From a virus, in IMG/VR virus record IMGVR_UViG_3300033489_000136, positions 1-42,188 of that record: DNA of 42,188 nucleotides; one strand, written 5' to 3'. Each line of letters starts with the position of its first letter. Positions within the stretch are counted from its first letter, which is position 1. Shown here one piece after another: positions 26,994 through 39,091 of this stretch. The position numbers and the translations under genes were made by a program. Below the pieces are notes generated by a model that had not been told where the DNA came from, ran no database searches, and saw nothing but the letters and a program-made list of their open reading frames with translations.

Positions 26994-27023
26994 ATTATAT
27001 CATACAGATAGCTAAGTTGTCAA
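26994..27023 (-). promoter_or_regulatory. sigma70-type promoter (minus strand)
   Basis: Minus strand reads TTGACA (27023-27018), 18 nt, TGaTATAAT (hexamer 26999-26994). Confidence 0.6.
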
Positions 27024-27203
27024 TAGCGGAGTATCAGCAGTTTCAGCTAACTCCCCAAGTGTCATGTTCATCATGTATACGGAAGGCTTAGCAGTGGACG
27101 CAAGAACCTTATCAAGCTGACTTAGCATCCTACGACACTCCTTATGACTTCGGTTGCAGTTCCGCAGATGTCTCTCTGCATCCTTCTGATATTCACTTTT
27201 CAT
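27012..27203 (-). CDS. Small hypothetical protein
   Basis: ATG 27203 preceded by GGAGG. The track start at 27215 is a GTG inside that RBS. Confidence 0.5.
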   Translation of the reverse strand: MKSEYQKDAERHLRNCNRSHKECRRMLSQLDKVLASTAKPSVYMMNMTLGELAETADTPLLTT

Positions 27204-27254
27204 TTTTGCCTCCACTTACTTGGTATATTTTGAAATCCGATATATTGTTAATAA

Positions 27255-27758
27255 TTACATTATTTCATTTATATCTTGTGTATCATTGTACTGTATTATC
27301 TTTCTCTCTTTAGCATTGTCTAGGGTTATGAATCTAGCAATATAAGGAAGGTCCTTAGTGCCTTCATAAGCCCATGTGAGGTCACTGTAGAATATGATTA
27401 TCTTGCAGGTAGGAGTCATATACTTATTCCATCTAGAATAGTAATGCTTAGATATTTTATACTCTCCAGCAGTGAGAGTACATCCTAGAACATCTGCAAT
27501 ATATTCGCAGTTAGATGGCGTTGAGATAAGAAGGTCAAAGGGTAAGTAGTCAGCATATCCATTTACATCTTCTACTTTATTGCCGTTGCATCTAAGAATA
27601 GCAGACACTTTAGCTTCTATCATCTTATGGGATAGTAGGCGTTTAATGAAGTCTACGGTATCATCATAATTAGGCTCAATGCCTGGATACTTGTCTGCAT
27701 ACTTCTCATTATCAAGTCTACTTCGTATGCGCTCCATTCTGCTTTCAGTGCTTTCCAT
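27255..27758 (-). CDS. Hypothetical protein in an AT-rich island; weak PD-(D/E)XK-like pattern
   Basis: 167 aa, RBS CAGGAG. LPFDLLIS ... GEYKISK could be a D...ExK motif. The gene is visibly more AT-rich than its neighbours. Confidence 0.5.
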   Translation of the reverse strand: MESTESRMERIRSRLDNEKYADKYPGIEPNYDDTVDFIKRLLSHKMIEAKVSAILRCNGNKVEDVNGYADYLPFDLLISTPSNCEYIADVLGCTLTAGEYKISKHYYSRWNKYMTPTCKIIIFYSDLTWAYEGTKDLPYIARFITLDNAKERKIIQYNDTQDINEIM

Positions 27759-27828
27759 ATCTGCTCCTGTGAGTGAATAATAATAATAATGTATTGATTA
27801 TCAATATAGGCGATTTCATTTTATACAT

Positions 27829-28800
27829 TTACTCCAAGTGATTCAGCAATTCAGAACCTCGAAGTTCAACTTCATCTTCAGGAATAGTAGGCACACGGCG
27901 AGTCAGGATTTGTGGATGAAGAGTAGACCTGTCCCATCGGAGCTTGATATAGTCAGGAAGGATGGTCTCTGCATTACGAGGGTGCTTAGTGAACTCCATG
28001 TCAACGGTAGTTTTAGTTTTGTCCGCAGTATTTAAGTTCATCTGAATGACTGTATCAAACCACCAGGAGAGTTCCTTGACACCAAAGGATTCATCAGAGC
28101 CATGACGGACTTCATTACCATCAGCATCAGTACCAGCCTTACGAGGATGATGGATAACTACCAGAGCCAGTTGACGCTGATAACCAGTATGTCTGTCCTT
28201 TTCATTGTAGTCGTATAGCATAAGGTCAAAGTTCTCAAGTAAGATATTTACATCATTAGCTTTAGTAAGGTCATGGTGAAACATCTTGTATAGTGGGTCA
28301 ATAATGATTAGGACAGGAAGGGAAGGGTAGTTAGTTATCATACTATCTATGTTGTTGCGAAGAGAGGATATGCCCGCCTGCTCATCAAGGTGGAGGATGT
28401 CTATGTAGCGTAAGACAACATTAGGAGGATAGGCTAGAGAGTCGGCTCTTTGAGCTTCTGCTGGCGCATCACCAGGCTTAGCAAGGTAGATTGCTTTCGT
28501 TCCTTCACAATACTTTTCAACTCTGTTCTTAGCAGCAACCCTACCACCTTCAGCTAGGAGATAGATAACATTACAGGGAGAGGTCTTGAAGCCTAGCCAC
28601 CTGCGACCAGTAGATGCTGCGTAGGCAAGATGGAGGGCAGAGGCTGACTTCCAACTTCCTTCGTTGCCAAAGATTTCAACCTTCCCGCCTACGTTTAGAA
28701 TACCATCCCAGATGATACGCTGAGTAGGAGGAGGCTTCCATTCTGCCCAGTCTTGAACTGTAAAAAGGTCCTTGTCTTCACGGTGGATGTCAGATGGCAA
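27829..28800 (-). CDS. RepA/AAA_25-type RecA-superfamily ATPase (putative replicative helicase)
   Basis: Walker A is FGNEGSWKSASAL and Walker B-like is LPVLIIIDPLYK. Overall it resembles RepA/DnaB C-terminal domain proteins. TTG start follows AAGGAG. Confidence 0.6.
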   Translation of the reverse strand: MPSDIHREDKDLFTVQDWAEWKPPPTQRIIWDGILNVGGKVEIFGNEGSWKSASALHLAYAASTGRRWLGFKTSPCNVIYLLAEGGRVAAKNRVEKYCEGTKAIYLAKPGDAPAEAQRADSLAYPPNVVLRYIDILHLDEQAGISSLRNNIDSMITNYPSLPVLIIIDPLYKMFHHDLTKANDVNILLENFDLMLYDYNEKDRHTGYQRQLALVVIHHPRKAGTDADGNEVRHGSDESFGVKELSWWFDTVIQMNLNTADKTKTTVDMEFTKHPRNAETILPDYIKLRWDRSTLHPQILTRRVPTIPEDEVELRGSELLNHLE

Positions 28801-28811
28801 AGGAGGCTCCT

Positions 28812-29186
28812 TTATTGCACGAATCTTTTGATTGTCTTCATCAGTTTGACTTCGCTACTACCTTCGGTTGGAGCAGTATGTTCACACAAGTACCGAAGTG
28901 CTGCATAAAGGACAGACATTTCCTCCTTAGTAAAGTTAATATCTGGCACTTGAGATACGGCATGGATGGCGGAGTGGATAGAGTATAGTTCCTTCTGTGC
29001 TATCTCTCCCATCATTAGTTCAGAATCCATTGGCAGTTCAATTACTGCACATCTGGTGGCTTGTGATAGACCTACAATAAGGTTAGGATTAAGATGGGTA
29101 CTTCTTGGATGCTTGATAACTATAAGGTTAGGTTCTCTGATGAGTGGTTGACCTGCGGGACTGATTAAGTCTTTTGCGCTAGCCAT
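28812..29186 (-). CDS. Hypothetical protein
   Basis: 124 aa, RBS AAAGGAG, first gene after the promoter at 29223-29251. Confidence 0.5.
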   Translation of the reverse strand: MASAKDLISPAGQPLIREPNLIVIKHPRSTHLNPNLIVGLSQATRCAVIELPMDSELMMGEIAQKELYSIHSAIHAVSQVPDINFTKEEMSVLYAALRYLCEHTAPTEGSSEVKLMKTIKRFVQ

Positions 29187-29222
29187 GACTAAGGCTCCTT
29201 TCGTGTTGAGGGTTCTTATTAT

Positions 29223-29251
29223 ATTATAACATAATGCGGTACTGATGTCAA
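29223..29251 (-). promoter_or_regulatory. sigma70-type promoter (minus strand)
   Basis: TTGACA (29251-29246), 17 nt, TGtTATAAT (hexamer 29228-29223). Confidence 0.65.
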
Positions 29252-29547
29252 CCTTCGCAACCTGGCAGGTATGGCTTATTCATAGCATCTTCTTCCTGCT
29301 GTTGCACCCATTCTGCAAACTCTCGTGCTTCATCTTCTGCTTCCGATTCGGCAATCATCTGAGCTTCTTGTGCTGCATCGTGGGCTGCATCTATTCGGGC
29401 AGATTCTCGGTCAGTCCACTCGGCTATCGCATGTTGCCAGACCTCCATCTGAATGTTCTCAGGCAAGTCATAATAGTCTTTATTGTAGCGTTCTTGAGAA
29501 AGTTCCTCTGCTCGGTTTGAAATCCAGTCCTCATAATCTGCTATCAT
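29248..29547 (-). CDS. Highly acidic small protein (DNA-mimic / anti-restriction candidate)
   Basis: 99 aa. By hand count there are 27 Asp+Glu against 7 Lys+Arg. Confidence 0.5.
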   Translation of the reverse strand: MIADYEDWISNRAEELSQERYNKDYYDLPENIQMEVWQHAIAEWTDRESARIDAAHDAAQEAQMIAESEAEDEAREFAEWVQQQEEDAMNKPYLPGCEG

Positions 29548-29559
29548 ACATAGTTCCCC

Positions 29560-29883
29560 CTAGAAGTGTGATTCAGGAAACTCCTCTTGCATATGCTTCT
29601 TGTCCATATAGATGCCAACTCGTTTCCTCCACTTACTAATAGTACTTCTGTCAACCTCATTGTTGAGGAAGCGGACTACATCATCAAGGCTTCCGTCAAA
29701 GAGGATTACATCCAGTTTGATATGGTACTTATACTCCAGCTTCTTCATTCTATCAGTTTTGGGAAAGGAGTCAGGCTGCTCATCTACAGTTTGCAGATGC
29801 TTAGTCCGCTTGGCAGGCTTAACACCCCGATGCTTAAGTACCTGACGGCGAAGTTGTGCTATCGGTGTCCGTTGCTCTGGCAT
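29560..29883 (-). CDS. Small DNA-binding protein (HTH-like C-terminal half)
   Basis: 107 aa, RBS AGGAG. The segment VVRFLNNEVDRSTISKWRKRVGI looks like a helix-turn-helix. Confidence 0.45.
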   Translation of the reverse strand: MPEQRTPIAQLRRQVLKHRGVKPAKRTKHLQTVDEQPDSFPKTDRMKKLEYKYHIKLDVILFDGSLDDVVRFLNNEVDRSTISKWRKRVGIYMDKKHMQEEFPESHF

Positions 29884-30250
29884 AGGAGTCTCCTATTCTA
29901 TCTAGTTCTTCACAACCAGCTAACATCAGAGCCGTTAGTTCTGACTTTGCAATACGGCATATGCGAGTGTGCCTTCGGCTAAGAAGATGAATATCCACAA
30001 GGATACTAGCATCATACCTCTTAGGCTTATGAGGACGGATGAGTAACCGTAGCCTTTGCCATAAGGAGTCACGGAACTCTATCTGGTCAGGCTGATGGCA
30101 AGATGGGCAGGCTATCTCAGGAATCACATCACCTGGTAGGAGAGGGTTAGAGCAATAGCCTACCTCAAGGTCACGGAATCTTCCGTTCCAGTGGCAGTGA
30201 TGGCAACTGACCTGAATGTTGCCTGCTGGTACTTTGTTCTTGTTAGACAT
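29834..30250 (-). CDS. Zinc-ribbon protein
   Basis: 138 aa, RBS AAGGAG. CHHC ... CPSC lie in the N-terminal half. The 3' end overlaps the next gene by 50 nt. Confidence 0.45.
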   Translation of the reverse strand: MSNKNKVPAGNIQVSCHHCHWNGRFRDLEVGYCSNPLLPGDVIPEIACPSCHQPDQIEFRDSLWQRLRLLIRPHKPKRYDASILVDIHLLSRRHTRICRIAKSELTALMLAGCEELDRIGDSYARATDTDSTTSPSGT

Positions 30251-30299
30251 ATGATTCTCCTTTCAGCTACTAGGATAATGTTCAGACTTATTCCGACTT

Positions 30300-30617
30300 T
30301 TATTGTGCGTTCTTTTCTCCTTTATATAGTTGATGTATATACTCTAGCTTTTCAGCATCTGACTGCTCATCAAGGAAGTCCTTATAATCTTCAATTATGC
30401 TCCATGTAGTAGGAGTGCGACAGGTTAAGCACCATAACCAACCTCCTCTAGCCCAGACGCAGGATATTGCACCACAATGAGGACAAGGCTGGTAGTTACG
30501 ATGCCAGTCAAGATGCCCTGACTCAATTCGTGCAGTCATTTCCTCCTCATCTGGCTCATCTTCACATAAACCGAAGATTAGATTGCCTTTTTCAGTATAG
30601 TGTTTGTTAGTAGCCAC
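30300..30617 (-). CDS. Zinc-ribbon protein
   Basis: 105 aa with CPHC ... CLTC. The GTG start overlaps the upstream stop (TAGTG). Confidence 0.45.
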   Translation of the reverse strand: MATNKHYTEKGNLIFGLCEDEPDEEEMTARIESGHLDWHRNYQPCPHCGAISCVWARGGWLWCLTCRTPTTWSIIEDYKDFLDEQSDAEKLEYIHQLYKGEKNAQ

Positions 30618-30901
30618 TAATCTTGCTCCTTATTTATGTTATCCTTCGTGTGATGTGACTTATGGCAGATACGATGGACGAGTACACGGTTCTCCAACTT
30701 CATATTCATGTGGTCTCCATCTATGTGATGCTCGGTAAGGTTATCAGTACCACGAGGAGGCAGAGCATCATCATAGATAAACGGCTCTTTGCACATATAG
30801 CAGTTAGGCTGATACTTTTCTATCATTGCCCAGAGGAAGTACTTCAGCCTTGCTTTCTCATTGGAGAGATTAGTCCTCCGATGAATTACCTTTTTGGTCA
30901 C
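30617..30901 (-). CDS. HNH endonuclease
   Basis: LTEHHIDGDHMNMKLENRVLVHRICHKSHH is a classical H-N-H layout, with an upstream Cys pair (NCYMCKE). GTG start follows GGAGG. Confidence 0.75.
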   Translation of the reverse strand: MTKKVIHRRTNLSNEKARLKYFLWAMIEKYQPNCYMCKEPFIYDDALPPRGTDNLTEHHIDGDHMNMKLENRVLVHRICHKSHHTKDNINKEQD

Positions 30902-30919
30902 TGTTCAGCCTCCATATTC

Positions 30920-30948
30920 ATTATACCATCTACTGTTGCGAATGTCAA
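30920..30948 (-). promoter_or_regulatory. sigma70-type promoter (minus strand)
   Basis: TTGACA (30948-30943), 17 nt, TGgTATAAT (hexamer 30925-30920). The spacer begins TTCGCAACA. Confidence 0.7.
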
Positions 30949-30959
30949 TAGCCAGTAAG

Positions 30960-31175
30960 CTAGGACTGAGACATACTGTCTAGATTAGTACGGAGAGCAA
31001 GTTTATCGTCATGCTTCTGTTGTTGTCTGATAATACTAATGCACTTATCCACTTGAGCAATCTTGTGAGTCAGACGCTTGTAAGGATTACTGCCCCGCAG
31101 ACGAATGAGTCGCTGATTTACCAGTTTCTTACGCTCGGCGAGCAGTTCCGCCATTGTCATCTTTGCAAAAGTCAT
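30960..31175 (-). CDS. Small hypothetical protein
   Basis: 71 aa, RBS GGGAGGTGG. Confidence 0.45.
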   Translation of the reverse strand: MTFAKMTMAELLAERKKLVNQRLIRLRGSNPYKRLTHKIAQVDKCISIIRQQQKHDDKLALRTNLDSMSQS

Positions 31176-31228
31176 TTACCACCTCCCGAAATTGAGCCTT
31201 CATAAAATCAGGTTACAGTTGCAATAAG

Positions 31229-31363
31229 CTAGTTAAGGAACAGTTGGGCAACTAATTCCAAAGGACGCTGGTTCTCATAATAGTCCCAGTCGAGTCCTTC
31301 CACTCCGTTCAACACTATATAGCTTGCAAGAATAAGATTCTGCAAGTTATCTATATCTTCCAT
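31229..31363 (-). CDS. Small hypothetical protein (44 aa)
   Basis: ATG 31363 after GAGGAGG. Sequence MEDIDNLQNLILASYIVLNGVEGLDWDYYENQRPLELVAQLFLN. Below the ORF-track size cutoff. Confidence 0.4.
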   Translation of the reverse strand: MEDIDNLQNLILASYIVLNGVEGLDWDYYENQRPLELVAQLFLN

Positions 31364-31440
31364 TATACCTCCTCAATGTCCCACCATGCAAGGAAGAACA
31401 GTCCTATTACTGCTAGTATTGAGACAATAAACTGTAACAT
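31363..31440 (-). CDS. 25-aa membrane peptide
   Basis: MLQFIVSILAVIGLFFLAWWDIEEV. ATG 31440 after GGAGGAATAGAGT. Its stop overlaps the next ATG (TAATG). Confidence 0.4.
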   Translation of the reverse strand: MLQFIVSILAVIGLFFLAWWDIEEV

Positions 31441-31443
31441 ACT

Positions 31444-31650
31444 CTATTCCTCCATAAATGCTATGATGTCTGCCACCTGGTCATTAGTTATGCTACCATC
31501 TCTGCGTATGATGTCCTGCTCAATGGACATGAACTGCTTGTGGTCTTTGCCATGAAGCAGCCCACCACAACGGCAAGTACAGCGTGGATGTTCTGCTAAC
31601 GTGCAGGAGTCAGACTGATGCAGAGTCAAGGCTCGCTTAAACTGTTTCAT
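31444..31650 (-). CDS. Small Cys-rich protein
   Basis: 68 aa, RBS GGAGGTGAG, first gene after the promoter at 31683-31711. Contains CTLAEHPRCTCRCGGLLH. Confidence 0.5.
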   Translation of the reverse strand: MKQFKRALTLHQSDSCTLAEHPRCTCRCGGLLHGKDHKQFMSIEQDIIRRDGSITNDQVADIIAFMEE

Positions 31651-31682
31651 ATGTTCTCACCTCCATTCATTGTACTGATTAT

Positions 31683-31711
31683 ATTATACCATCTTTTGTT
31701 GCCATTGTCAA
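31683..31711 (-). promoter_or_regulatory. sigma70-type promoter (minus strand), perfect consensus hexamers
   Basis: TTGACA (31711-31706), 17 nt, TGgTATAAT (hexamer 31688-31683). The spacer begins ATGGCAACA. Confidence 0.75.
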
Positions 31712-31732
31712 CCCACCAGTAGCCAGCATTAC

Positions 31733-31864
31733 TTATTCTTTTTCAATCTTGATGTAGATTATTCCATCAGTACAGTGTAGATGCCCACCTTCAAACGCAC
31801 CTACACTTTCAGTAGTGTCGAAGCCTAATCTACGTAGCGCTTCTAATGCTTCTTTAATAGTCAT
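31733..31864 (-). CDS. Small hypothetical protein (43 aa)
   Basis: ATG 31864 after AAGGAG. Sequence MTIKEALEALRRLGFDTTESVGAFEGGHLHCTDGIIYIKIEKE. Confidence 0.4.
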   Translation of the reverse strand: MTIKEALEALRRLGFDTTESVGAFEGGHLHCTDGIIYIKIEKE

Positions 31865-31874
31865 ATACTCCTTT

Positions 31875-31973
31875 CTACATTAGCCATATTACTATTGCTA
31901 TCCATACTGCTAGACCTAAGGCGGTGTAGATAGCTACTAGCGTTAGGATAGCCTTGAGTTGAACTTTATCCAT
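31875..31973 (-). CDS. 32-aa membrane peptide
   Basis: MDKVQLKAILTLVAIYTALGLAVWIAIVIWLM. It lies between two annotated genes, and its RBS is weak. Confidence 0.3.
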   Translation of the reverse strand: MDKVQLKAILTLVAIYTALGLAVWIAIVIWLM

Positions 31974-31990
31974 ACTTATCGCTACTATCC

Positions 31991-32182
31991 TCACACTTCT
32001 TTTAGCCAGCCTGCCTTGACAGCATCCGCCACTTCACATGCTCTTGAGTTTGGCATATCTTCCTGATACTCACCGCACAAAGGACAATGCTTAACTGACT
32101 TCGGGTGAATATAATACTGCTCGCACTCGCAGTCCCAATATTCAGAGGCTAGTGTTAAGTCCCCGACTACTTCAAGTTTCAT
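31991..32182 (-). CDS. Small zinc-binding protein
   Basis: 63 aa with CEC ... CPLC. Confidence 0.45.
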   Translation of the reverse strand: MKLEVVGDLTLASEYWDCECEQYYIHPKSVKHCPLCGEYQEDMPNSRACEVADAVKAGWLKEV

Positions 32183-32215
32183 GTTTCACCTACCTTTTAT
32201 ATTATTTTAGCTTAG

Positions 32216-32389
32216 CTACTTTACCATCATTAGCATTCTGGCTAGACGCTTGTGTCCTGCCTTAAGATACCAGCGTCTCCACCAGTCAGCTAACTGCGCC
32301 ACAGTGCCCTCTCCACCGAGGATGATAAGTTCCTTACTTGCATCCTCCGCATAGGAGTCCATCTGTTCTGGAGTTAGTTGTTCTGCCAT
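32216..32389 (-). CDS. Small hypothetical protein
   Basis: ATG 32389 after AAGGAG. The track start at 32422 is a TTG that would overlap the upstream gene. Confidence 0.45.
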   Translation of the reverse strand: MAEQLTPEQMDSYAEDASKELIILGGEGTVAQLADWWRRWYLKAGHKRLARMLMMVK

Positions 32390-32399
32390 ATCATCTCCT

Positions 32400-32573
32400 T
32401 TATAGGTCATATTTTGATTCAAACTCGCAGGTAGGCTCTGCGTTAGCGGGTATCTCTATATCATCGTTATCTACGAATGTTAGAACTCTCCCATTCTCAT
32501 CTTTCAGAGCCGATATTGTGTAGTGCGGATTGTCATCTTGTTTTATCTCATACTCGTACAACTTATAATGCAT
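32400..32573 (-). CDS. Small hypothetical protein (57 aa)
   Basis: ATG 32573 after GGGAGG. The protein begins MHYKLYEYEIKQDDNPHYTISALKDENGRVL... Confidence 0.4.
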   Translation of the reverse strand: MHYKLYEYEIKQDDNPHYTISALKDENGRVLTFVDNDDIEIPANAEPTCEFESKYDL

Positions 32574-32579
32574 GGCATA

Positions 32580-32753
32580 TTACCTCCCTTCCTGCTTATA
32601 TTTATAGTTCACTACCATAAAGTATATCGGGAAGCCAGTCCGCTTCACTCCAACGCACACCCAGCTTAGGAAGAGTTCAATCTCCCTATCGGAGTATGTA
32701 ACGTTGAAGTTACTTCCCCCTATTCTCCACCCGAACTGTGTCTTTCGTAACAT
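32580..32753 (-). CDS. Small hypothetical protein
   Basis: ATG 32753 after GGAGG. The track ATG at 32768 would lie about 3 nt from the predicted transcript start. Confidence 0.45.
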   Translation of the reverse strand: MLRKTQFGWRIGGSNFNVTYSDREIELFLSWVCVGVKRTGFPIYFMVVNYKYKQEGR

Positions 32754-32777
32754 TATGCTTACCTCCATTCCTATTTA

Positions 32778-32807
32778 ATTATACCACACAGTACAGCCAG
32801 TTGTCAA
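32778..32807 (-). promoter_or_regulatory. sigma70-type promoter (minus strand), with a second TTGACA 20 bp upstream
   Basis: TTGACA (32807-32802), 18 nt, TGgTATAAT (hexamer 32783-32778). A second TTGACAAGCGCAACA lies at 32827-32813. Confidence 0.65.
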
Positions 32808-32901
32808 CCACCTGTTGCGCTTGTCAACCCTGCAACCGTCCAAAGCGGTACTGCTACGTGTGGATTGTTGGCTGGTTGAACTGTCCTGAAATGCGCTGAA
32901 C

Positions 32902-32940
32902 AACAGAAAAGCGAGACAGCTTGTTACTGAACTGCCTCGC
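32902..32940 (-). terminator. Rho-independent terminator (minus strand)
   Basis: Minus strand reads GCGAGGCAG, 12-nt loop, CTGTCTCGC (9-bp stem, one mismatch), followed by TTTTCTGTT. It lies 41 nt after the stop of gene 32981..33511. Confidence 0.65.
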
Positions 32941-32980
32941 CTTTACTGCCCCCTGATAACTGCCACCCTGATTGTGAAGT

Positions 32981-33511
32981 TTAGGTTATGTACCCGCCTT
33001 TCTTGAGTAGGGCTTCTCTGATTCCGTACCGCCAGTTTTTGTCCGTGTTGGAGTCGTACGCTTCTTTGAAGCTTTTGCCGTCCTTGAAAGGCTCGTTGCC
33101 CAACTTTTCCATGAGTTCGTCTGTGGTGACGGTAAACTTCTTGCCTCCACCACCTCCGCCTGTTCTGGTTGCTCTTGCCTGTGTCTTGAGCAAGCGGACT
33201 GTTACGAGCTTCTCGCCAAAGTCATTCACATACCAGATACCGTCTGCGTCATCCAGTTCTCCAGCCTCCACCATCTTTTTCAGGGCGTTCTGGATTGCTG
33301 ACTTGACTTTTTCCGTCTTGCCTTCAAGGACTTTCTGCTTGGCGGCGAGTTCGGCGGCTTCCTTTTCTTTCTGGAATTTCACCAGTTCGGCTGACACTTT
33401 GGATACCAGCTTGAAGTCCTTTGACTTCAGAGCTTTATCCATCTCCGCCATGAGTTCAGCTTCGGTCTTGGGTTTCTCGGGTGTAGCTACTGTTCCTTTG
33501 TTTTCTGCCAT
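32981..33511 (-). CDS. Hypothetical Lys/Glu-rich coiled-coil protein with Gly6 linker and C-terminal globular domain (nucleic-acid-binding candidate)
   Basis: 176 aa, RBS GGAGG. It has its own promoter and terminator and is visibly more GC-rich than its neighbours. The antisense ORF 32988..33605 was rejected. Confidence 0.6.
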   Translation of the reverse strand: MAENKGTVATPEKPKTEAELMAEMDKALKSKDFKLVSKVSAELVKFQKEKEAAELAAKQKVLEGKTEKVKSAIQNALKKMVEAGELDDADGIWYVNDFGEKLVTVRLLKTQARATRTGGGGGGKKFTVTTDELMEKLGNEPFKDGKSFKEAYDSNTDKNWRYGIREALLKKGGYIT

Positions 33512-33558
33512 TCGGCACCTCCATTTATTTGCTAGGGTGTCTTATCACCCTGCCTTAC

Positions 33559-33588
33559 ATTTTACCATGACAGGGTGGCAGATGTCAA
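33559..33588 (-). promoter_or_regulatory. sigma70-type promoter (minus strand)
   Basis: TTGACA (33588-33583), 18 nt, TGgTAAAAT (hexamer 33564-33559). It shares TTGACATCTGCCA with the promoter at 36231-36260. Confidence 0.65.
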
Positions 33589-33661
33589 GGGCAGTTGCTG
33601 TTTGAGTTCAGCTTGTCTTGTTGGTGGACTGCTGGCAGGCGCTTAGCGCCTACCACTTCTG

Positions 33662-33880
33662 TTACGTGTAGCTTATGAGCAAGATGTTAACAAATGCTCC
33701 CCACTCACCAGCCTGCTTTTCTAGCATTTGCTTTAGCTCATAAGTGGCATCTTCATCTGGCTCAAGCTCCACCCGCCACTTTTCTCCATGAGGCATATCA
33801 ATGATGATATACCTCTTGTCTGCTGGGGCGATTGCCTCGCTGTGCCCGAAGTCGGTTCTCCGTTCGCTAAAATTTTTCAT
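33662..33880 (-). CDS. Small hypothetical protein
   Basis: 72 aa, RBS GGGAGG. It is preceded by an untranslated leader of about 165 nt from the promoter at 34050-34078. Confidence 0.5.
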   Translation of the reverse strand: MKNFSERRTDFGHSEAIAPADKRYIIIDMPHGEKWRVELEPDEDATYELKQMLEKQAGEWGAFVNILLISYT

Positions 33881-34049
33881 ATTAGCACCTCCCAGCAGTC
33901 CACCGTGCCTATTCAGTTGTCAATCGGACAGGTTCTGCCATACGATACATTCTCCTCAATGCTCAACCGTATATGCCAGTCCTACCATGCGGGGAGAACA
34001 CCCGCTATCGGTATGTCATGCTGTAACCTCCATAATTGATTCTACCTCC

Positions 34050-34078
34050 ATCATACCAGAACGTGTTGCCATTGTCAA
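34050..34078 (-). promoter_or_regulatory. sigma70-type promoter (minus strand)
   Basis: TTGACA (34078-34073), 17 nt, TGgTATGAT (hexamer 34055-34050). The -35 plus spacer start, TTGACAATGGCAACA, is identical to the promoter at 31683-31711. Confidence 0.65.
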
Positions 34079-34079
34079 T

Positions 34080-34225
34080 GGTACAATGGTACTAGTACCA
34101 AGGTCCTAGAACAAACGTTCTAATTATGCTAATGGGAGAGCATTAGCACATATGTTCATATTGTTCTGGCATTGCATAAATGCGTACATGCGGAGTTGCG
34201 CAATTGCGGACTAGCACATCTGTTC
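34080..34225. promoter_or_regulatory. Cluster of palindromes and repeated half-sites (operators, LexA-box-like sites or origin iterons)
   Basis: The cluster contains GGTAC (34080-34084) and GGTACTAGTACC (34088-34099). It also has TAGAAC-N4-GTTCTA (34107-34122) and the GCTAATG-N6-CATTAGC hairpin (34128-34147). TAGCACAT[A/C]TGTTC occurs twice (34144-34157 and 34212-34225), and CGCAATTGCG lies at 34199-34208. Confidence 0.5.
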
Positions 34226-34371
34226 TACATCGGGAGGTTTACATAATCCAGAACACCCCCGCTGGAGTAGCTTGACATAAAAAGAATGGGGGTACGGTCA
34301 TGGGAGTTTTATACGCTATTTTACTCTCTATGACTGTGCGGAGAATTTCAATTTTATAAATCTGAAACTGG

Positions 34372-34509
34372 CTACTTGGAGATGAATAGGAATAATACCC
34401 CTATGCTAATGAGTCCTAGCGTTACTACCAGGGGAGGTCCTACAATAAGAAGGAATAACGCCCAGTCAAATGGTTCTTCTTTAGATATGATGCCTCCATT
34501 AGGAGAATT
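34372..34509 (-). other. 45-codon transmembrane segment in frame behind the TAG stop of gene 34510..34755 (possible readthrough extension or non-canonical-start peptide)
   Basis: ..ESDFQK-TAG-NSPNGGIISKEEPFDWALFLLIVGPPLVVTLGLISIGVLFLFISK-TAG. No ATG/GTG/TTG lies in this frame before the hydrophobic stretch. Confidence 0.3.
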
Positions 34510-34755
34510 CTATTTTTGAAAATCTGATTCTGGAAAAGTCCTTACTTTGGGTAGAGGACCTGTAGGATAACCCGCAAACTCATCAAGGATTATTGTATCA
34601 ATCGAGTTACCAGCTTTACTTGGAGTATACGAGGGACATTGAGGTCTGGAAGAGAGGCATCGAACTCCAGGTTGAAGATGATACTGCTCTGATTTGCAGG
34701 CAGGACGGAAGTTCGGGTGCTCGGTAGTTGCGTAGAATAAGCAGAACTCAATCAT
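34510..34755 (-). CDS. Small hypothetical protein
   Basis: 81 aa, ATG after GGAGGTATTGAT. Confidence 0.5.
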   Translation of the reverse strand: MIEFCLFYATTEHPNFRPACKSEQYHLQPGVRCLSSRPQCPSYTPSKAGNSIDTIILDEFAGYPTGPLPKVRTFPESDFQK

Positions 34756-34756
34756 A

Positions 34757-34822
34757 TCAATACCTCCAGAAATGGTCTAACAGCCAGTTCCAAGCCTTAA
34801 TAATCCAGTTGATGAGTTTCAT
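34757..34822 (-). CDS. 21-aa Trp-rich peptide (candidate)
   Basis: MKLINWIIKAWNWLLDHFWRY. It fills the gap between two genes, and its stop overlaps the next start (TGATATG). The RBS is weak. Confidence 0.25.
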   Translation of the reverse strand: MKLINWIIKAWNWLLDHFWRY

Positions 34823-34830
34823 ATTATCTT

Positions 34831-35073
34831 TTACTCCTCCGTCTCATAATATGTAATAGCATTACCACAGTTGCTGCATACGATAGCTCTGTTCCAGTGG
34901 TCTAATTGATATACTCTCATCTTCACCTGAAAAGCTGCCTTTACCCAATAGCTGCCTGGAGTAAATTGCGGTAGTGTAGGCATTTCTAATGGTTCGTCTT
35001 TCCTATACTCCACTGACGATGCTCCTATACAGTGGCATAATGGGCAGTTAAACTCCACAATTTTTTCATTCAT
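34831..35073 (-). CDS. Zinc-ribbon protein
   Basis: 80 aa with CPLC ... CSNC. ATGA overlap with the upstream stop. Confidence 0.5.
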   Translation of the reverse strand: MNEKIVEFNCPLCHCIGASSVEYRKDEPLEMPTLPQFTPGSYWVKAAFQVKMRVYQLDHWNRAIVCSNCGNAITYYETEE

Positions 35074-35753
35074 AGCATTTCCTCCTCTATAACTTCTACA
35101 TCGTACGGGTACTCCCTATCCATAATGATAGATGCGAGTGCCAGATGAAATATATCATTGTCCTGCACAGCCTTGCGCAAGTAGTAAATATCCTGTATCT
35201 TAGCCATGATTCTCTTTGCAGCAGGACGTAAGTCTAGCGTCTTCTGATAACCTAAGTCGTGTCCGTAGATTGCTATGTTTCTGCTTAGGTCTGCACAACC
35301 ACCAAAGTCACTAGGCAGCCAAATTACTCTATGACAGAACTTGCACTCGAACAATGAGCCTTCATTAACTTTAACTTCACCGACCCAGTGGTGTGCTTTA
35401 CTGACTGAGGAGTCCTCACACCTTGCATCAATCCATTTTATTCCCAACTCGGTGGCACTCCTCCTAGAGGTTCTATCTCCTGCTTTAGCTTTTCTATTTG
35501 CTCTCCTAAATGAATTATTCTGCTCAAGTCTATTGGCTCTATGTTCATCTCTGCTCTTAGCCTTTGCGCTACTCTTCCTCTCCTTAACATAACCAGACGT
35601 CTCTGCTCTCGAACATCCTTTGGGAGGACTAGCCTCCTCCTCCCCCGATGCTCTACATAAGGAGTCTTTTCCAAACGTTCCAATCCCTGAATTATGTAAC
35701 AACTCTGACTGTCTGAGTCTCTCTTTGCGTGCCAATGCAGAGTCTTTGTCCAT
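35070..35753 (-). CDS. Hypothetical protein; the C-terminal ~122 aa look globular (Cys/His-containing) and the N-terminal ~105 codons overlap gene 35438..35896
   Basis: ATG 35753 has a good RBS (GGAGGAAGACA). An alternative TTG at 35447 lies 12 nt after AGGAGG. The true start or frame-entry point is unresolved. Confidence 0.45.
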   Translation of the reverse strand: MDKDSALARKERLRQSELLHNSGIGTFGKDSLCRASGEEEASPPKGCSRAETSGYVKERKSSAKAKSRDEHRANRLEQNNSFRRANRKAKAGDRTSRRSATELGIKWIDARCEDSSVSKAHHWVGEVKVNEGSLFECKFCHRVIWLPSDFGGCADLSRNIAIYGHDLGYQKTLDLRPAAKRIMAKIQDIYYLRKAVQDNDIFHLALASIIMDREYPYDVEVIEEEML

Positions 35754-35896
35754 TGTCTTCCTCCAATATTACCAGCTACTATACTTTTCCAAATTTTACC
35801 AAATACGCAAGGTGAGCCGACTGTTATCATTTCTCCACAGTAGCAACACTTGCTAGTCTTATTTGCCCGACTTATCCAGATTTCTATTTCAGCCAC
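35438..35896 (-). CDS. Cys-rich / Arg-rich hypothetical protein
   Basis: 152 aa with a GTG start. It begins with KCCYCGEMITVGSPC, followed by RGRRRLVLPKDVREQRRLVMLRRGRVAQRL. The sequence looks like real protein throughout. Confidence 0.55.
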   Translation of the reverse strand: MAEIEIWISRANKTSKCCYCGEMITVGSPCVFGKIWKSIVAGNIGGRQWTKTLHWHAKRDSDSQSCYIIQGLERLEKTPYVEHRGRRRLVLPKDVREQRRLVMLRRGRVAQRLRAEMNIEPIDLSRIIHLGEQIEKLKQEIEPLGGVPPSWE

Positions 35897-36204
35897 CTAT
35901 GAACAGTCCTAATGCTTACATTTTTTGCTTCTGCAATTTTCTGAATACTATATCCTATTTTCCGTAAATCTGTGGCTTTCTTAACTTTAGCACTACGCTT
36001 AGCAGTAGTTTTTCCTCTCTGAGTTTCCAGCTCACACCAAGGATAAGGACAACTCTCTAGGCAGAAGTTAATACCATCCTGAGAGTCAGGCAATTTAATG
36101 CGTGCTGCCTTCATAGCAGAGCAAGGCTTTGTGCCAGTACTATGAACTATTTTTCCGTGTGAGGAAGATTTAGCACCAACAAAATGTCCTGGCAGATTGA
36201 CCAT
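35884..36204 (-). CDS. HTH DNA-binding protein, first gene of the early operon
   Basis: C-terminal LRKIGYSIQKIAEAKNVSIRTVHRWLK is a helix-turn-helix of the resolvase/HTH_7 kind. ATG 36204 follows GAGGGAG. The track ATG at 36225 lies only 5 nt after the -10 hexamer. Confidence 0.55.
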   Translation of the reverse strand: MVNLPGHFVGAKSSSHGKIVHSTGTKPCSAMKAARIKLPDSQDGINFCLESCPYPWCELETQRGKTTAKRSAKVKKATDLRKIGYSIQKIAEAKNVSIRTVHRWLK

Positions 36205-36230
36205 TAGCTCCCTCTTTTTCACCATAACCT

Positions 36231-36260
36231 ATTATACCATGAAGTAATGGCAGATGTCAA
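36231..36260 (-). promoter_or_regulatory. sigma70-type promoter (minus strand) for the early operon
   Basis: TTGACA (36260-36255), 18 nt, TGgTATAAT (hexamer 36236-36231). Confidence 0.7.
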
Positions 36261-37140: not shown

Positions 37141-37389
37141 ATGGAGTCAGCAGTACTTGAGGCTTTGGTAACTGGTGGACCTGTGGCGGTTCTTGCAGGA
37201 ATTATCTTCATCATGTATGTTAGGCATAGGAATAACTCAGAGAAGTGCCAGCGTGATGACAGAGTATTCATGGAGGATAGGCTAACAAAGATAATTGAGA
37301 GCGAACAGAGAACAAGAGAAGATAATACAAAGGCTATAACGGAACTGAATGTTCTTCTCAAAACTTTGAATGGCAGAAGTAAAGGGTAA
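37141..37389 (+). CDS. Small membrane protein (N-terminal TM helix plus charged helix)
   Basis: 82 aa, RBS AAGGAG. The TM segment is VTGGPVAVLAGIIFIMYV. Confidence 0.5.
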   Translation: MESAVLEALVTGGPVAVLAGIIFIMYVRHRNNSEKCQRDDRVFMEDRLTKIIESEQRTREDNTKAITELNVLLKTLNGRSKG

Positions 37390-37390
37390 T

Positions 37391-39091
37391 ATGGCAGTAG
37401 TGCAGATTTCGCAAGAAGAAGCCATGAGGCGGTTGTTCTCAAACCGCAAACTTACTCTTGAGACACTGCTAGAGATTGAGGATAAGAGCAGGCAACTTGT
37501 GCCTATGAAGCTCAATCCTATCCAGGCGGATGTGATTGACACCTCCACATGGAGAGACATCTATGTTAAGCCTGGGCAGATAGGATTTACTTCAGTTGTC
37601 GGCGGAGACTTCCTCATCGACAATGTTACTATAAATGGCACTGTGTCAGTCATTATCAGCTATGATGAGTTCTCGGCGCAGAGGCTTCTGCTCAAAGCTA
37701 AGAAGTATCATCAATCCTTGCAGAGGAAGATTCCTTCCATTCCTGACCTAGACCACAAGTCAAGCACTGAACTTAGCTTTGTTAATAAGGAGAGAGGATT
37801 CTACTCTACATTCTACATCTTCTCCGCCCGAGGTTATGTACTCGGCAGAGGTGAGACAATTCACAATCTGCTATGTGATGAGTATGCGTTCTGGCCTCCT
37901 GGCACTCATGAGCAAGTATTTGCCTCGGCGGTGCAGAGAGTACCCCTGAAGGCAGGAACAAAAATCCGTATTGGGTCTACGGCTAATGGAGAAGAGAATC
38001 CCTTTTGCGAGATGTATAAGGCAGCGAGAGAAGGCTATGCCATAGGTTCTGGACTTAGCCGTTCAGTCTACAAGCCTCACTTCTATCCTTGGTTCATTCA
38101 TCCAGAATATGTAATGTACCCTGATGATACTTTTGTGCTAGATGGAGATGAGGCAGAACCGCTGAAGAATATGTCTGATGTAGAAGTCCAACTAATGAAA
38201 AAACTTACCGAAGTATTTGACTTTGAGCCTCAGTTGGCTATGGCTAAACTCCGCTGGAGAAGATACAAGCAAGCCGAGATGAGGTCACTACATAGGTCTG
38301 GGCAGACGGTATTTATCTTCAATCAGGAGTATCCTGAGGATGATGAGAGTTGTTTTCTTACCGCAGGTAACCAAGCCTACTCAACTGATATAATAGAGCA
38401 GAAGGTGAGGACTTGCTACCCTGCACCGATTGTCCATGCCTTCACGAATAAGAAAACTGGAGCGTCTGCGGAGGCACAGATTTGGGAAGATGCGCAAGTT
38501 GGGCTGCCTTATCTGATAGGTATTGACCCAGGCAAGGGCAAGCAGTCCGAATCAGTTGCTCATGTGTGGCACTTTGAGGAGGGTTATCAGGATAAGGAAG
38601 GCAAGGACATTCCTCCAGTACTTAAGCATGTAGCAACACTGTCAGGCTGGTATGACGAGTGGGAGATGGCAGAGTATGTTAAATCACTTGGCTACCACTT
38701 TAATACGGCGGTACTCTGTCCTGAAGACAATCTTGATATTGTGTCTCACCTGCGTGATTATCCTGCGCTTTATTATCGGGAGGATATGCGCACAGGCAAG
38801 GGCATCAGGGCAATCGGTTGGCAGACTAATACTTCCACCAAGCCTTACATGCTGACTGAACTTAACCGCCACATGGAGGACGTTGAGTGCCATGACCAGA
38901 GATTCTGGTCTCAGTGCAAGAACATCCGCAGGGATGCTTCTATGAAATACGGAATCTCTGTAGTTGGAGCTGACGACCACCATGACGCAGGCGCAATAGC
39001 AGTGTGTTGCCGAGGAGTGCAAGCAGTACAGGTTGGTTATGCAGGGAATACAGGAGACTCAGGTGGCTGGAATGATACTTGGGGCAAGTAG
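37391..39091 (+). CDS. terL: Terminase large subunit
   Basis: Lies immediately upstream of the portal. P-loop-like VKPGQIGFTS. Nuclease-domain-like YLIGIDPGKGK and VVGADDHHDAGAIA. ATG 37391 follows the upstream stop, and ATG 37370 is an in-frame alternative. Confidence 0.8.
   Translation: MAVVQISQEEAMRRLFSNRKLTLETLLEIEDKSRQLVPMKLNPIQADVIDTSTWRDIYVKPGQIGFTSVVGGDFLIDNVTINGTVSVIISYDEFSAQRLLLKAKKYHQSLQRKIPSIPDLDHKSSTELSFVNKERGFYSTFYIFSARGYVLGRGETIHNLLCDEYAFWPPGTHEQVFASAVQRVPLKAGTKIRIGSTANGEENPFCEMYKAAREGYAIGSGLSRSVYKPHFYPWFIHPEYVMYPDDTFVLDGDEAEPLKNMSDVEVQLMKKLTEVFDFEPQLAMAKLRWRRYKQAEMRSLHRSGQTVFIFNQEYPEDDESCFLTAGNQAYSTDIIEQKVRTCYPAPIVHAFTNKKTGASAEAQIWEDAQVGLPYLIGIDPGKGKQSESVAHVWHFEEGYQDKEGKDIPPVLKHVATLSGWYDEWEMAEYVKSLGYHFNTAVLCPEDNLDIVSHLRDYPALYYREDMRTGKGIRAIGWQTNTSTKPYMLTELNRHMEDVECHDQRFWSQCKNIRRDASMKYGISVVGADDHHDAGAIAVCCRGVQAVQVGYAGNTGDSGGWNDTWGK

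Follow-up and report, generated by a model that had tools for sequence, protein, structure and literature searches.

The locus described here raises the question of why a phage without a recognisable repressor carries a dense cluster of palindromic sites at one of its early promoters, and of which protein would read them. The DNA in question comprises positions 1 to 42,188 of IMG/VR virus record IMGVR_UViG_3300033489_000136 (the whole stretch of 42,188 nucleotides is hereafter called the window) and represents the ~42-kb genome of a lytic-looking, uncultivated phage. An earlier note, made from the letters alone, had singled out positions 34080-34225 as a group of operator-like palindromes with GAAC-N4-GTTC sites in an otherwise gene-free region, and had proposed either an SOS-responsive or phage-repressor-controlled switch, or a replication origin with iterons. 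We find that the region carries five related 16-bp dyads, which run into the -35 element of a minus-strand promoter and recur at the same place in related genomes. Judged by this sequence comparison, the dyads very probably form a real, conserved, promoter-gating operator array of the LexA-box type, for which host LexA or a LexA-type host repressor is, tentatively, our preferred candidate reader.

Five dyads run into an early promoter

The repeat unit of the array is the dyad TAG-N-AC-N4-GT-N-CTA, of which five copies are found within 34079-34227. The promoter that they adjoin (34050-34078, minus strand) combines TTGACA (34078-34073) with a TG-extended TATGAT that ends at 34050, the two being separated by 17 bp, and with 11/12 matches it is the best sigma70 match of the region. 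Its start site at ~34043 is a prediction, placed 7 nt past the -10 element, and the operator centres given below are counted from there. The proximal dyad, O1 (34079-34094, minus strand; TAGTACCATTGTACCA), belongs to the GTAC type (class 2) and directly abuts the -35 element with a gap of 0, its centre lying at -43.5. It overlaps by 2 bp with O2 (34093-34108, minus strand; TAGGACCTTGGTACTA; centre -57.5), which shares a further 2 bp with O3 (34107-34122; centre -71.5). O3 is a perfect palindrome of the GAAC-N4-GTTC type (class 1) with the sequence TAGAACAAACGTTCTA, or TAGAACGTTTGTTCTA on the minus strand. O3, O2 and O1 succeed each other in overlapping 14-bp steps up to the -35 hexamer, and the remaining two dyads, O4 (34144-34159, minus strand; ATGAACATATGTGCTA; class 1, with GAAC/GCAC halves) and O5 (34212-34227, minus strand; TAGAACAGATGTGCTA; class 1), are located 37 and 105 bp further upstream. 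The promoter-adjacent, multi-dyad layout that marks phage repressor arrays of the lambda OR/OL type is thus present, with five dyads, three of them overlapping.

Such a cluster is well beyond chance. There are 12 copies of GNAC-N4-GTNC in the window, five of which fall within 153 bp where 0.025 would be expected (Poisson P ~9e-11; ~5e-8 after scanning correction), and the exact word TAGMAC-N4-GTTC occurs in the 42 kb only at 34107, 34144 and 34212. The signal resides in the local cluster, since GAAC-N4-GTTC with ≤1 mismatch shows no genome-wide enrichment (15 found, 12 expected). The region is also free of genes, in agreement with the first description: the minus strand has no open reading frame (ORF) of ≥30 aa between 33881 and 34509, the plus-strand ORFs of the same interval are only 31 and 47 aa long, and tRNA, tmRNA and Rfam searches of the region gave no match.

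The individual elements on which the earlier note was built are all present, namely: GGTAC (34080-34084); GGTACTAGTACC (34088-34099), 9 bp from the -35 element; the palindrome that is O3; GCTAATG/CATTAGC (34128-34147); two copies of TAGCACAT[A/C]TGTTC (34144-34157 and 34212-34225); and CGCAATTGCG (34199-34208). Their parsing, however, has to be revised. GGTAC, GGTACTAGTACC and GGTACAATGGTACT are pieces of the overlapping O1 and O2, and neither the hairpin nor CGCAATTGCG belongs to the conserved operator family. The hairpin, with its 7-bp stem, has no counterpart in the aligned regions of four relatives (L149, L154, L158 and L118) and is probably incidental, whereas CGCAATTGCG represents another motif of the TTGC..CAA type, which by eye only appears weakly conserved.

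The array is conserved in position among diverged relatives

No DNA match to GenBank phages was found in a similarity search, and the large terminase subunit (TerL; 37370-39091, plus strand) shares no more than 28% identity with that of any GenBank phage, so that no annotated relative is of help. Relatives were gathered with TerL and p176, the product of a 176-aa gene located downstream of the array (32981-33511, minus strand), as probes. They comprise genomes from IMG/VR (L001-L007 and L094-L112), contigs from GTDB metagenome-assembled genomes (MAGs; L118-L121), assemblies with p176 homologues (L147-L154) and one contig from JGI metagenomes (L158); the window phage itself is listed as WIN. 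L158 was the one new relative obtained with the O3/O2 junction as a metagenome query, the remaining matches being unrelated. Divergence within this phage family, which is not previously described, reaches ~50% protein identity.

In ~20 genomes (L001-L006, L097, L100, L101, L105, L107, L118, L119, L147-L149, L151-L154 and L158), one to five dyads of the 16-mer family occupy the equivalent intergenic region and lie close upstream of a homologous, near-consensus promoter that points toward p176. The comparison with related phages that the earlier note had suggested thus turned out in favour of the sites. The DNA around the operators is too diverged for blastn alignment, and an unbiased count of 8-mers in 19 upstream regions returned operator words only at the top, namely: ACATATGT, GAACATAT, AGAACATA, TAGTACCA, TAGAACAT and ATGTTCTA, each present in 6-8 genomes against 0.01-0.04 expected per region. 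The 44-bp O3-O2-O1 composite is kept nearly base for base in WIN, L149, L154 and L158, while L118 keeps O3-O2. Within it, TAGGACCTTNGTACYA from the O2 region is retained in L149, L154 and L158, L118 and L107 have variants of it, and the O3 homologue TAGAACATWTGTTCTA stands at the same position in L149, L154, L158 and L118.

The spacing between the proximal dyad and the promoter takes a few recurrent values, and twelve promoters from eleven genomes have this dyad at either -43.5 or ~-54. The gap to the -35 element is 0 in WIN, L004, L005 and L153, with the centre at -43.5, and likewise in L148 (-44.5); it is 10-11 bp in L101, L105, L107, L148b and L149 (centre ~-54); and in other relatives the proximal dyad is found farther upstream (-68 to -138). 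The dyads are missing from L007, L121 and L150, of which L007 and L121 keep both p176 and an early protein, p152 (35896-35438, minus strand, in the window), and the L150 locus keeps p176. Extra motif matches in L005 and L006 were discarded as coding coincidences, as they lie inside terL and encode EVAHMF. The exact O3 16-mer gave 86 scattered matches on unrelated contigs in IMG/VR, which are uninformative. In a separate observation, the unrelated, GC-rich contig L160 (Ga0233403_10009633) carries at ~540-640 the sequence TAGGACGTTTGTTCTAGGACCTTTGTACTA, followed after 12 bp by a 16-mer identical to O3, and these sites adjoin a 520-aa phage-like ORF; another virus or host lineage may thus use this operator grammar as well.

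The dyads resemble LexA boxes

Symmetrised over 40 sites collected by pattern, the consensus is TAGAACATATGTTCTA (T1 A2 G3 N4 A5 C6 A7 W8 W9 T10 G11 T12 N13 C14 T15 A16). Position 4 is A, C or T and rarely G, no co-variation with position 13 is seen, and the two halves are only 2 nt apart at the centre, which together argue for a protein (dimer) site rather than a hairpin, cruciform or RNA structure. The sites fall into two classes, G[A/C]ACA-NN-TGT[G/T]C (class 1) and TAGTAC[C/T]-NN-NGTACYA (class 2). Class 2 is promoter-proximal in the genomes that have both (WIN, L101, L105, L107 and L149), and L004, L005 and L153 have a class-1 site at -43.5.

Characterised LexA boxes include the Gram-positive/Chloroflexi-type CGAACN4GTTCG and the cyanobacterial RGTACNNNDGTWCB / AGTACWNWTGTACT (PMC3091678), and the array matches both. 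TAGAACATATGTTCTA is a CGAACN4GTTCG-type box save for its outermost bases. O3 has the GAAC-N4-GTTC core with an RNRY-type spacer, and O2, O4 and O5 have one deviating core base each. Class 2 (TAGTAC-N4-GTACYA) fits the cyanobacterial form, with O1 fitting it exactly at 34080-34093 (PMC3091678), so that the LexA-box likeness pointed out in the earlier note holds. The array and known LexA boxes have in common the dyad frame G-N-AC-N4-GT-N-C, a preferred A..T spacer that is often ATAT, and the occurrence of boxes in tandem. They differ in that the array has TA...TA instead of C...G as outer bases and many GCAC or GGAC half-sites, and in that its sites lie upstream of the -35 element of a lytic-looking phage promoter, not over a core promoter. 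A literature search for the exact box strings returned nothing relevant.

A host LexA-type repressor as the candidate reader

Among the ~55 ORFs scanned with Pfam and PHROGs, there is no integrase and no CI/Cro, HTH_3, LexA_DNA_bind or S24 protein, as the earlier note had surmised for integrase and a CI-like repressor. Given a LexA-type consensus and no recognisable LexA-like domain in the phage, a host LexA-type repressor is taken as the likeliest reader. In line with this, hhalign comparison of p176 and p152 profiles with the N-terminal domains of E. coli and B. subtilis LexA found no similarity. What is observed are the sites, the extent to which they are conserved and the way in which they keep register with the promoter; that a protein binds them, in which sense it regulates and which protein it is are inferred, as follows. 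Each 16-bp dyad would bind one protein dimer, and the dimers would bind cooperatively from -43.5 outward, next to the alpha subunits and region 4 of sigma, and in this way set promoter activity. Repression is the favoured sign, because the promoter is already consensus. Its transcript would cover a leader and a small cassette ORF and would, in most relatives, extend to the abundant-looking p176 gene, and the promoter would be released by RecA-stimulated LexA cleavage upon DNA damage or upon phage replication itself. Loss of the operators in L007, L121 and L150 is explained more easily as loss of control by a host factor than as loss of a phage autoregulator. Furthermore, LexA motifs are stable across broad groups (PMC8565304), which fits an operator that stays constant while the phages that carry it diverge.

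There is a precedent in GIL01, a tectivirus of Bacillus thuringiensis that is without its own repressor and in which host LexA, together with gp7, binds tandem boxes at P1/P3 (PMC6182141, PMC4551915); gp6 of the same phage, a truncated LexA homologue, activates P3 from a palindrome centred at -43.5 (PMC6182141). As a repressor-less phage that uses host LexA at tandem boxes, GIL01 supports the host-LexA reading. The two systems are alike in the absence of a CI-type repressor and integrase, in the tandem LexA-type boxes at a phage promoter, and in the palindrome at -43.5. They are unlike in that the dinBoxes of GIL01 are placed inside its promoter or downstream of it, whereas the present sites are upstream of the -35 element, and in that the GIL01 -43.5 site (GACACAC-GTGTGAC) is read by a recognisable LexA-like protein, none being detectable in the present phage. 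Moreover, GIL01 is a temperate linear plasmid prophage, while the present family has a T7-like replication module.

Tripartite operators such as OR1-OR3 of lambda, and the double, overlapping SOS boxes found at colicin promoters, offer further parallels. They share with the present array adjacent, graded dyads by a promoter, a conserved order of variants, and overlapping boxes that imply cooperative occupancy. In contrast to lambda, neither a divergent second promoter nor an adjacent repressor gene was found at the present locus, and its dyads, which overlap by 2 bp at 14-bp steps, are packed more tightly than the lambda sites.

Several points weigh against LexA. No site overlaps the -10 element or the spacer, the proximal dyad either abutting the -35 element or lying at least 10 bp upstream of it, and a dimer at -43.5 would, by analogy, occupy the classical activator position and is not an obvious steric block. 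Boxes from which bound LexA interferes with RNA polymerase usually overlap the -35 element, the -10 element or the start site. Half-sites are heterogeneous within a single array (GAAC, GCAC, GGAC and GTAC) and their subtypes are position-specific, which looks like the graded operators of a dedicated switch, or like sites for two readers; a 2004 study by Mazon reportedly found that characterised LexA proteins discriminate A from T at the heterogeneous half-site position. The invariance of the G/A/C core is partly circular, as it follows from the way in which the sites were collected, and only the flanks and the spacer are independent of it. p176 in the window also has an operator-free promoter of its own (33588-33559). 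The genome looks strictly lytic, with its own PolA, helicase and RNase H-like protein, so that the benefit of SOS control is not obvious. Of the switch envisaged by the earlier note, the conserved operator-like set at the 34078-34050 promoter stands, and LexA is a candidate for its reader.

Alternative readers and functions

The main rival, which we hold to be somewhat less likely, is that the array is read by a dimeric regulator encoded by the phage itself, with p176 and p152 as candidates, acting as a temporal or autoregulatory switch that either represses or, from -43.5, activates in the manner of a class II factor such as GIL01 gp6 or Mu Mor/C. Phage switches with multi-site arrays, such as lambda OR, typically show overlapping dyads whose subtypes come in a fixed order, and the array is always linked in cis to p176, the gene it would control in most relatives. 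The predicted structure of p176 shows, besides a long coiled-coil helix, a beta hairpin and a Gly6 linker, a domain of three C-terminal helices with a near-invariant TDKNWRYAIR..LLK motif; yet DNA binding finds no support in fold or family, as the model (pLDDT 72) has no fold match in PDB or BFVD, and Pfam matches over 39 members are all weak. p152, a universal early protein, combines an invariant C-C-H-C metal site with a basic region and a coiled coil, and weakly resembles DNA-binding zinc fingers and Max in PDB and Pfam, but none of its matches reaches the threshold, and a model built from the single sequence is too poor to use (pLDDT 37). An adjacent cognate gene of the CI/Cro/HTH_3 type, as found next to lambda OR/OL, is not detected with Pfam or PHROGs, which leaves p176 and p152 as unproven candidates. 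As for activation, a palindrome centred between -41.5 and -43.5 is expected of class II activators and is seen in the four genomes with a -43.5 site (L148 being at -44.5), and this centre is also that of the GIL01 gp6 palindrome. Class II promoters, on the other hand, have a poor -35 element, and here a perfect TTGACA is combined with a TG-extended -10 element in the window and its relatives, so that an activator is dispensable. Nor is it likely that an operator private to the phage would match the LexA consensus, including its spacer, by chance. Two particular versions of a phage reader were rejected: p113 (35884-36225), the only clear HTH protein, is absent from the operator-bearing L098, L100, L105, L107 and L118, and a putative recognition helix of p176 (W/F/K) does not track the operator subtype, as L148 has the 'W' form with GTAC sites and L150 has the helix without sites.

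A role of the region as a replication origin, or part of one, appears improbable. Here the palindromes and the TTATGTMAA repeats upstream of them would bind an initiator, and adjacent transcription would open or prime the DNA, as at T4 oriF/oriG and in ColE1. At least three families of short motifs do lie within ~300 non-coding bp, including same-orientation direct repeats of TTATGTMAA near the dyads (two in the window and 11 in L007), and there is a duplicated AT-rich element (34340-34371), a promoter with a 160-nt leader, and a phage-encoded PolA, helicase and RNase H-like protein. Against this, the dyads stand in base-pair-exact register with the -35 element in many genomes, which argues for an interplay with RNA polymerase and leaves the earlier note's origin with iterons weak as far as the palindromes are concerned. 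In addition, the conserved sites are the dyads and not iterons, no initiator gene was recognised, and the GC skew merely mirrors gene orientation. Still less probable is another global regulator of the host with a similar dyad, e.g. FapR, whose operators in Firmicutes are TTAGTAC-N3-GTACTAA. The TAGTAC half-sites of the array resemble those of FapR, but the spacing differs by 1 bp (N4 here) and the class-1 sites (GAACA..TGTTC) do not fit. Finally, we give practically no credence to a functionless accumulation of palindromes by chance. The 7-bp hairpin and CGCAATTGCG, which are not conserved as such, might be counted in its favour; the clustering statistic and the fixed position of the sites in ~20 genomes already refute it.

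To return to the LexA-type reader, the full proposal that a large family of lytic-looking sediment phages, with a PolA replication module of its own but without integrase or repressor, wires host LexA into its early transcription, by means of boxes stacked at the -35 element, seems to us rather unlikely as a whole. Were it true, the phage would sense DNA damage in its host or use replication-triggered LexA cleavage as a developmental timer; alternatively, it may enter a repressor-less carrier or lysogenic state like that of GIL01. The 'use and abuse of LexA' known from mobile elements such as integrons, plasmids and temperate phages would then include a widespread lineage of the virulent type, and the operators would provide a sequence handle on the LexA motif, and hence on the phylum, of the host. 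If the reader is instead a phage protein, the array would be the operator of a new family of regulators, p176 and p152 having no known relatives, and would constitute a compact, portable promoter-operator module.

Genome context and host

The plus strand carries late/structural genes, TerL among them, and a minus-strand block running from 36.2 kb to 17.7 kb contains small early genes followed by a replication module. This module encodes an AAA_25 helicase, an RNase H-like protein, a DNA methylase, a dCMP deaminase and a family-A DNA polymerase (PolA). Nine near-identical minus-strand promoters are spread over 26994-36260 (TTGACA, a 16-18-bp spacer ending in TG, and TATAAT; 29/30-nt matches), and only the one at 34078 carries operators. 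This set of host-type promoters is unusually dense and uniform for an early region, with roughly one per 0.5-2 kb.

The phage is held in the samples SRR10376091, SRR10376092 and IMG 3300027740. As the promoters are consensus sigma70, the host is taken to be a bacterium. Family contigs have been binned in MAGs with conflicting labels, namely: 'uncultured archaeon', Thermodesulfovibrionales and Pirellulales, and the close relatives are whole-phage contigs; L118 (CAYPUO010000001.1) and L119 (CAYUTF010000085.1), for example, are GTDB contigs in two separate 'uncultured archaeon' MAGs. These labels were rejected as evidence of host identity, being probable mis-binning in view of promoters of the bacterial sigma70 type. 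Short palindromes are strongly avoided throughout the window: GATC is absent (~150 expected), as are CCGG (71) and CGCG (25), GGCC occurs 3 times (101), and ATTAAT, CCATGG and CAGCTG have 0 copies. Such avoidance suggests that restriction systems of the host exert strong selection, and it could serve as a clue to the host. The cyanobacterial hallmark HIP1 (GCGATCGC) also has 0 copies in the window, which is uninformative as GATC is avoided altogether.

Features upstream of the array

Just upstream of the dyads, the second motif family, TTATGTMAA, is represented by direct repeats at 34246-34238 and 34280-34272 (minus strand). There are three copies each in L001, L147, L118 and L120, and neither their orientation nor the intergenic region that holds them varies. 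In L007 (5562-5803), 11 copies of TTATGT[C/A/T]AA within 240 bp replace the dyads. On the opposite strand, the repeat reads TTGACATAA, a -35-like word, and the repeats could be iteron-like or decoy sites. Further conserved blocks are likewise located upstream of the dyads, namely GACCGTAC (34299-34291, minus strand) and the AT-rich element at 34371-34340, which has its duplicate at 34533-34502.

Still further upstream, a 32-nt direct repeat (34340-34371 and 34502-34533, 78% identical) flanks a minus-strand segment at 34372-34533. An 81-aa ORF ends here with a TAG stop (34512-34510), beyond which 45 in-frame codons continue to 34372; they encode a transmembrane helix, and no ATG, GTG or TTG codon is available to start them. 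Insertion of a cassette, extension of the ORF by readthrough or decay of a gene could each account for the segment.

p152 overlaps by 316 nt, in a different frame of the minus strand, with p227 (35753-35070), which has a strong GGAGG ribosome-binding site. Both give tblastn matches in relatives, and L101, L105 and L107 have only the C-terminal part of p227, as a separate gene. Gene callers choose p227 and skip p152, which is missing from the protein database.

The transcribed region and its cassettes

The predicted transcript begins with an untranslated leader of ~160 nt (33881-34043, minus strand), whose fold is not unusual (z = 0). A block within it (33910-33992) is 76% identical to L001, and by eye a like block is found in L147. 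L001 has a 91-aa ORF in this block, where the window and L147 have stop codons. The block may represent a gene lost recently or, alternatively, a non-coding element under conservation.

p176 lies downstream of the operator-bearing promoter in nearly all relatives. It has at least 162 homologues, all of them metagenomic, one named as marine sediment and many on contigs of 38-46 kb, and it has no Pfam domain. Its mRNA leader in relatives (L003 at ~5869, L005 at ~5904, L101, L105, L107, L119, L148, L154 and others) contains the motif AGTGGTAACA followed by CAGCACTTTAACAA, which the window does not have. By eye, this motif is flanked by short complementary arms that vary by genome (GCTG/CAGC, CTGGAC/GTCCAG, GGCGA/TCGCC); RNAalifold on a MAFFT alignment of the relatives' motif gave no consensus pairs, leaving the stem unconfirmed.

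The first gene after the regulated promoter is a 72-aa ORF (33662-33880, minus strand), a variable cassette with no Pfam or PHROG match. It is flanked by a 21-nt inverted repeat (33623-33643 and 33884-33904; 90% complementary), the 5' arm of which includes the Shine-Dalgarno sequence. In L101, L107, L148 and L153, the arms GTGGACTGCTGG / CCAGCAGTCCAC enclose other small ORFs, as do those of a second pair, CCTCCCAGTGG / CCACTGGGAGG, in L105, L148 and L150. Such repeat-flanked ORFs look like exchangeable mini-gene cassettes, or else the repeats may form long-range RNA stems, possibly for processing of the RNase III type.

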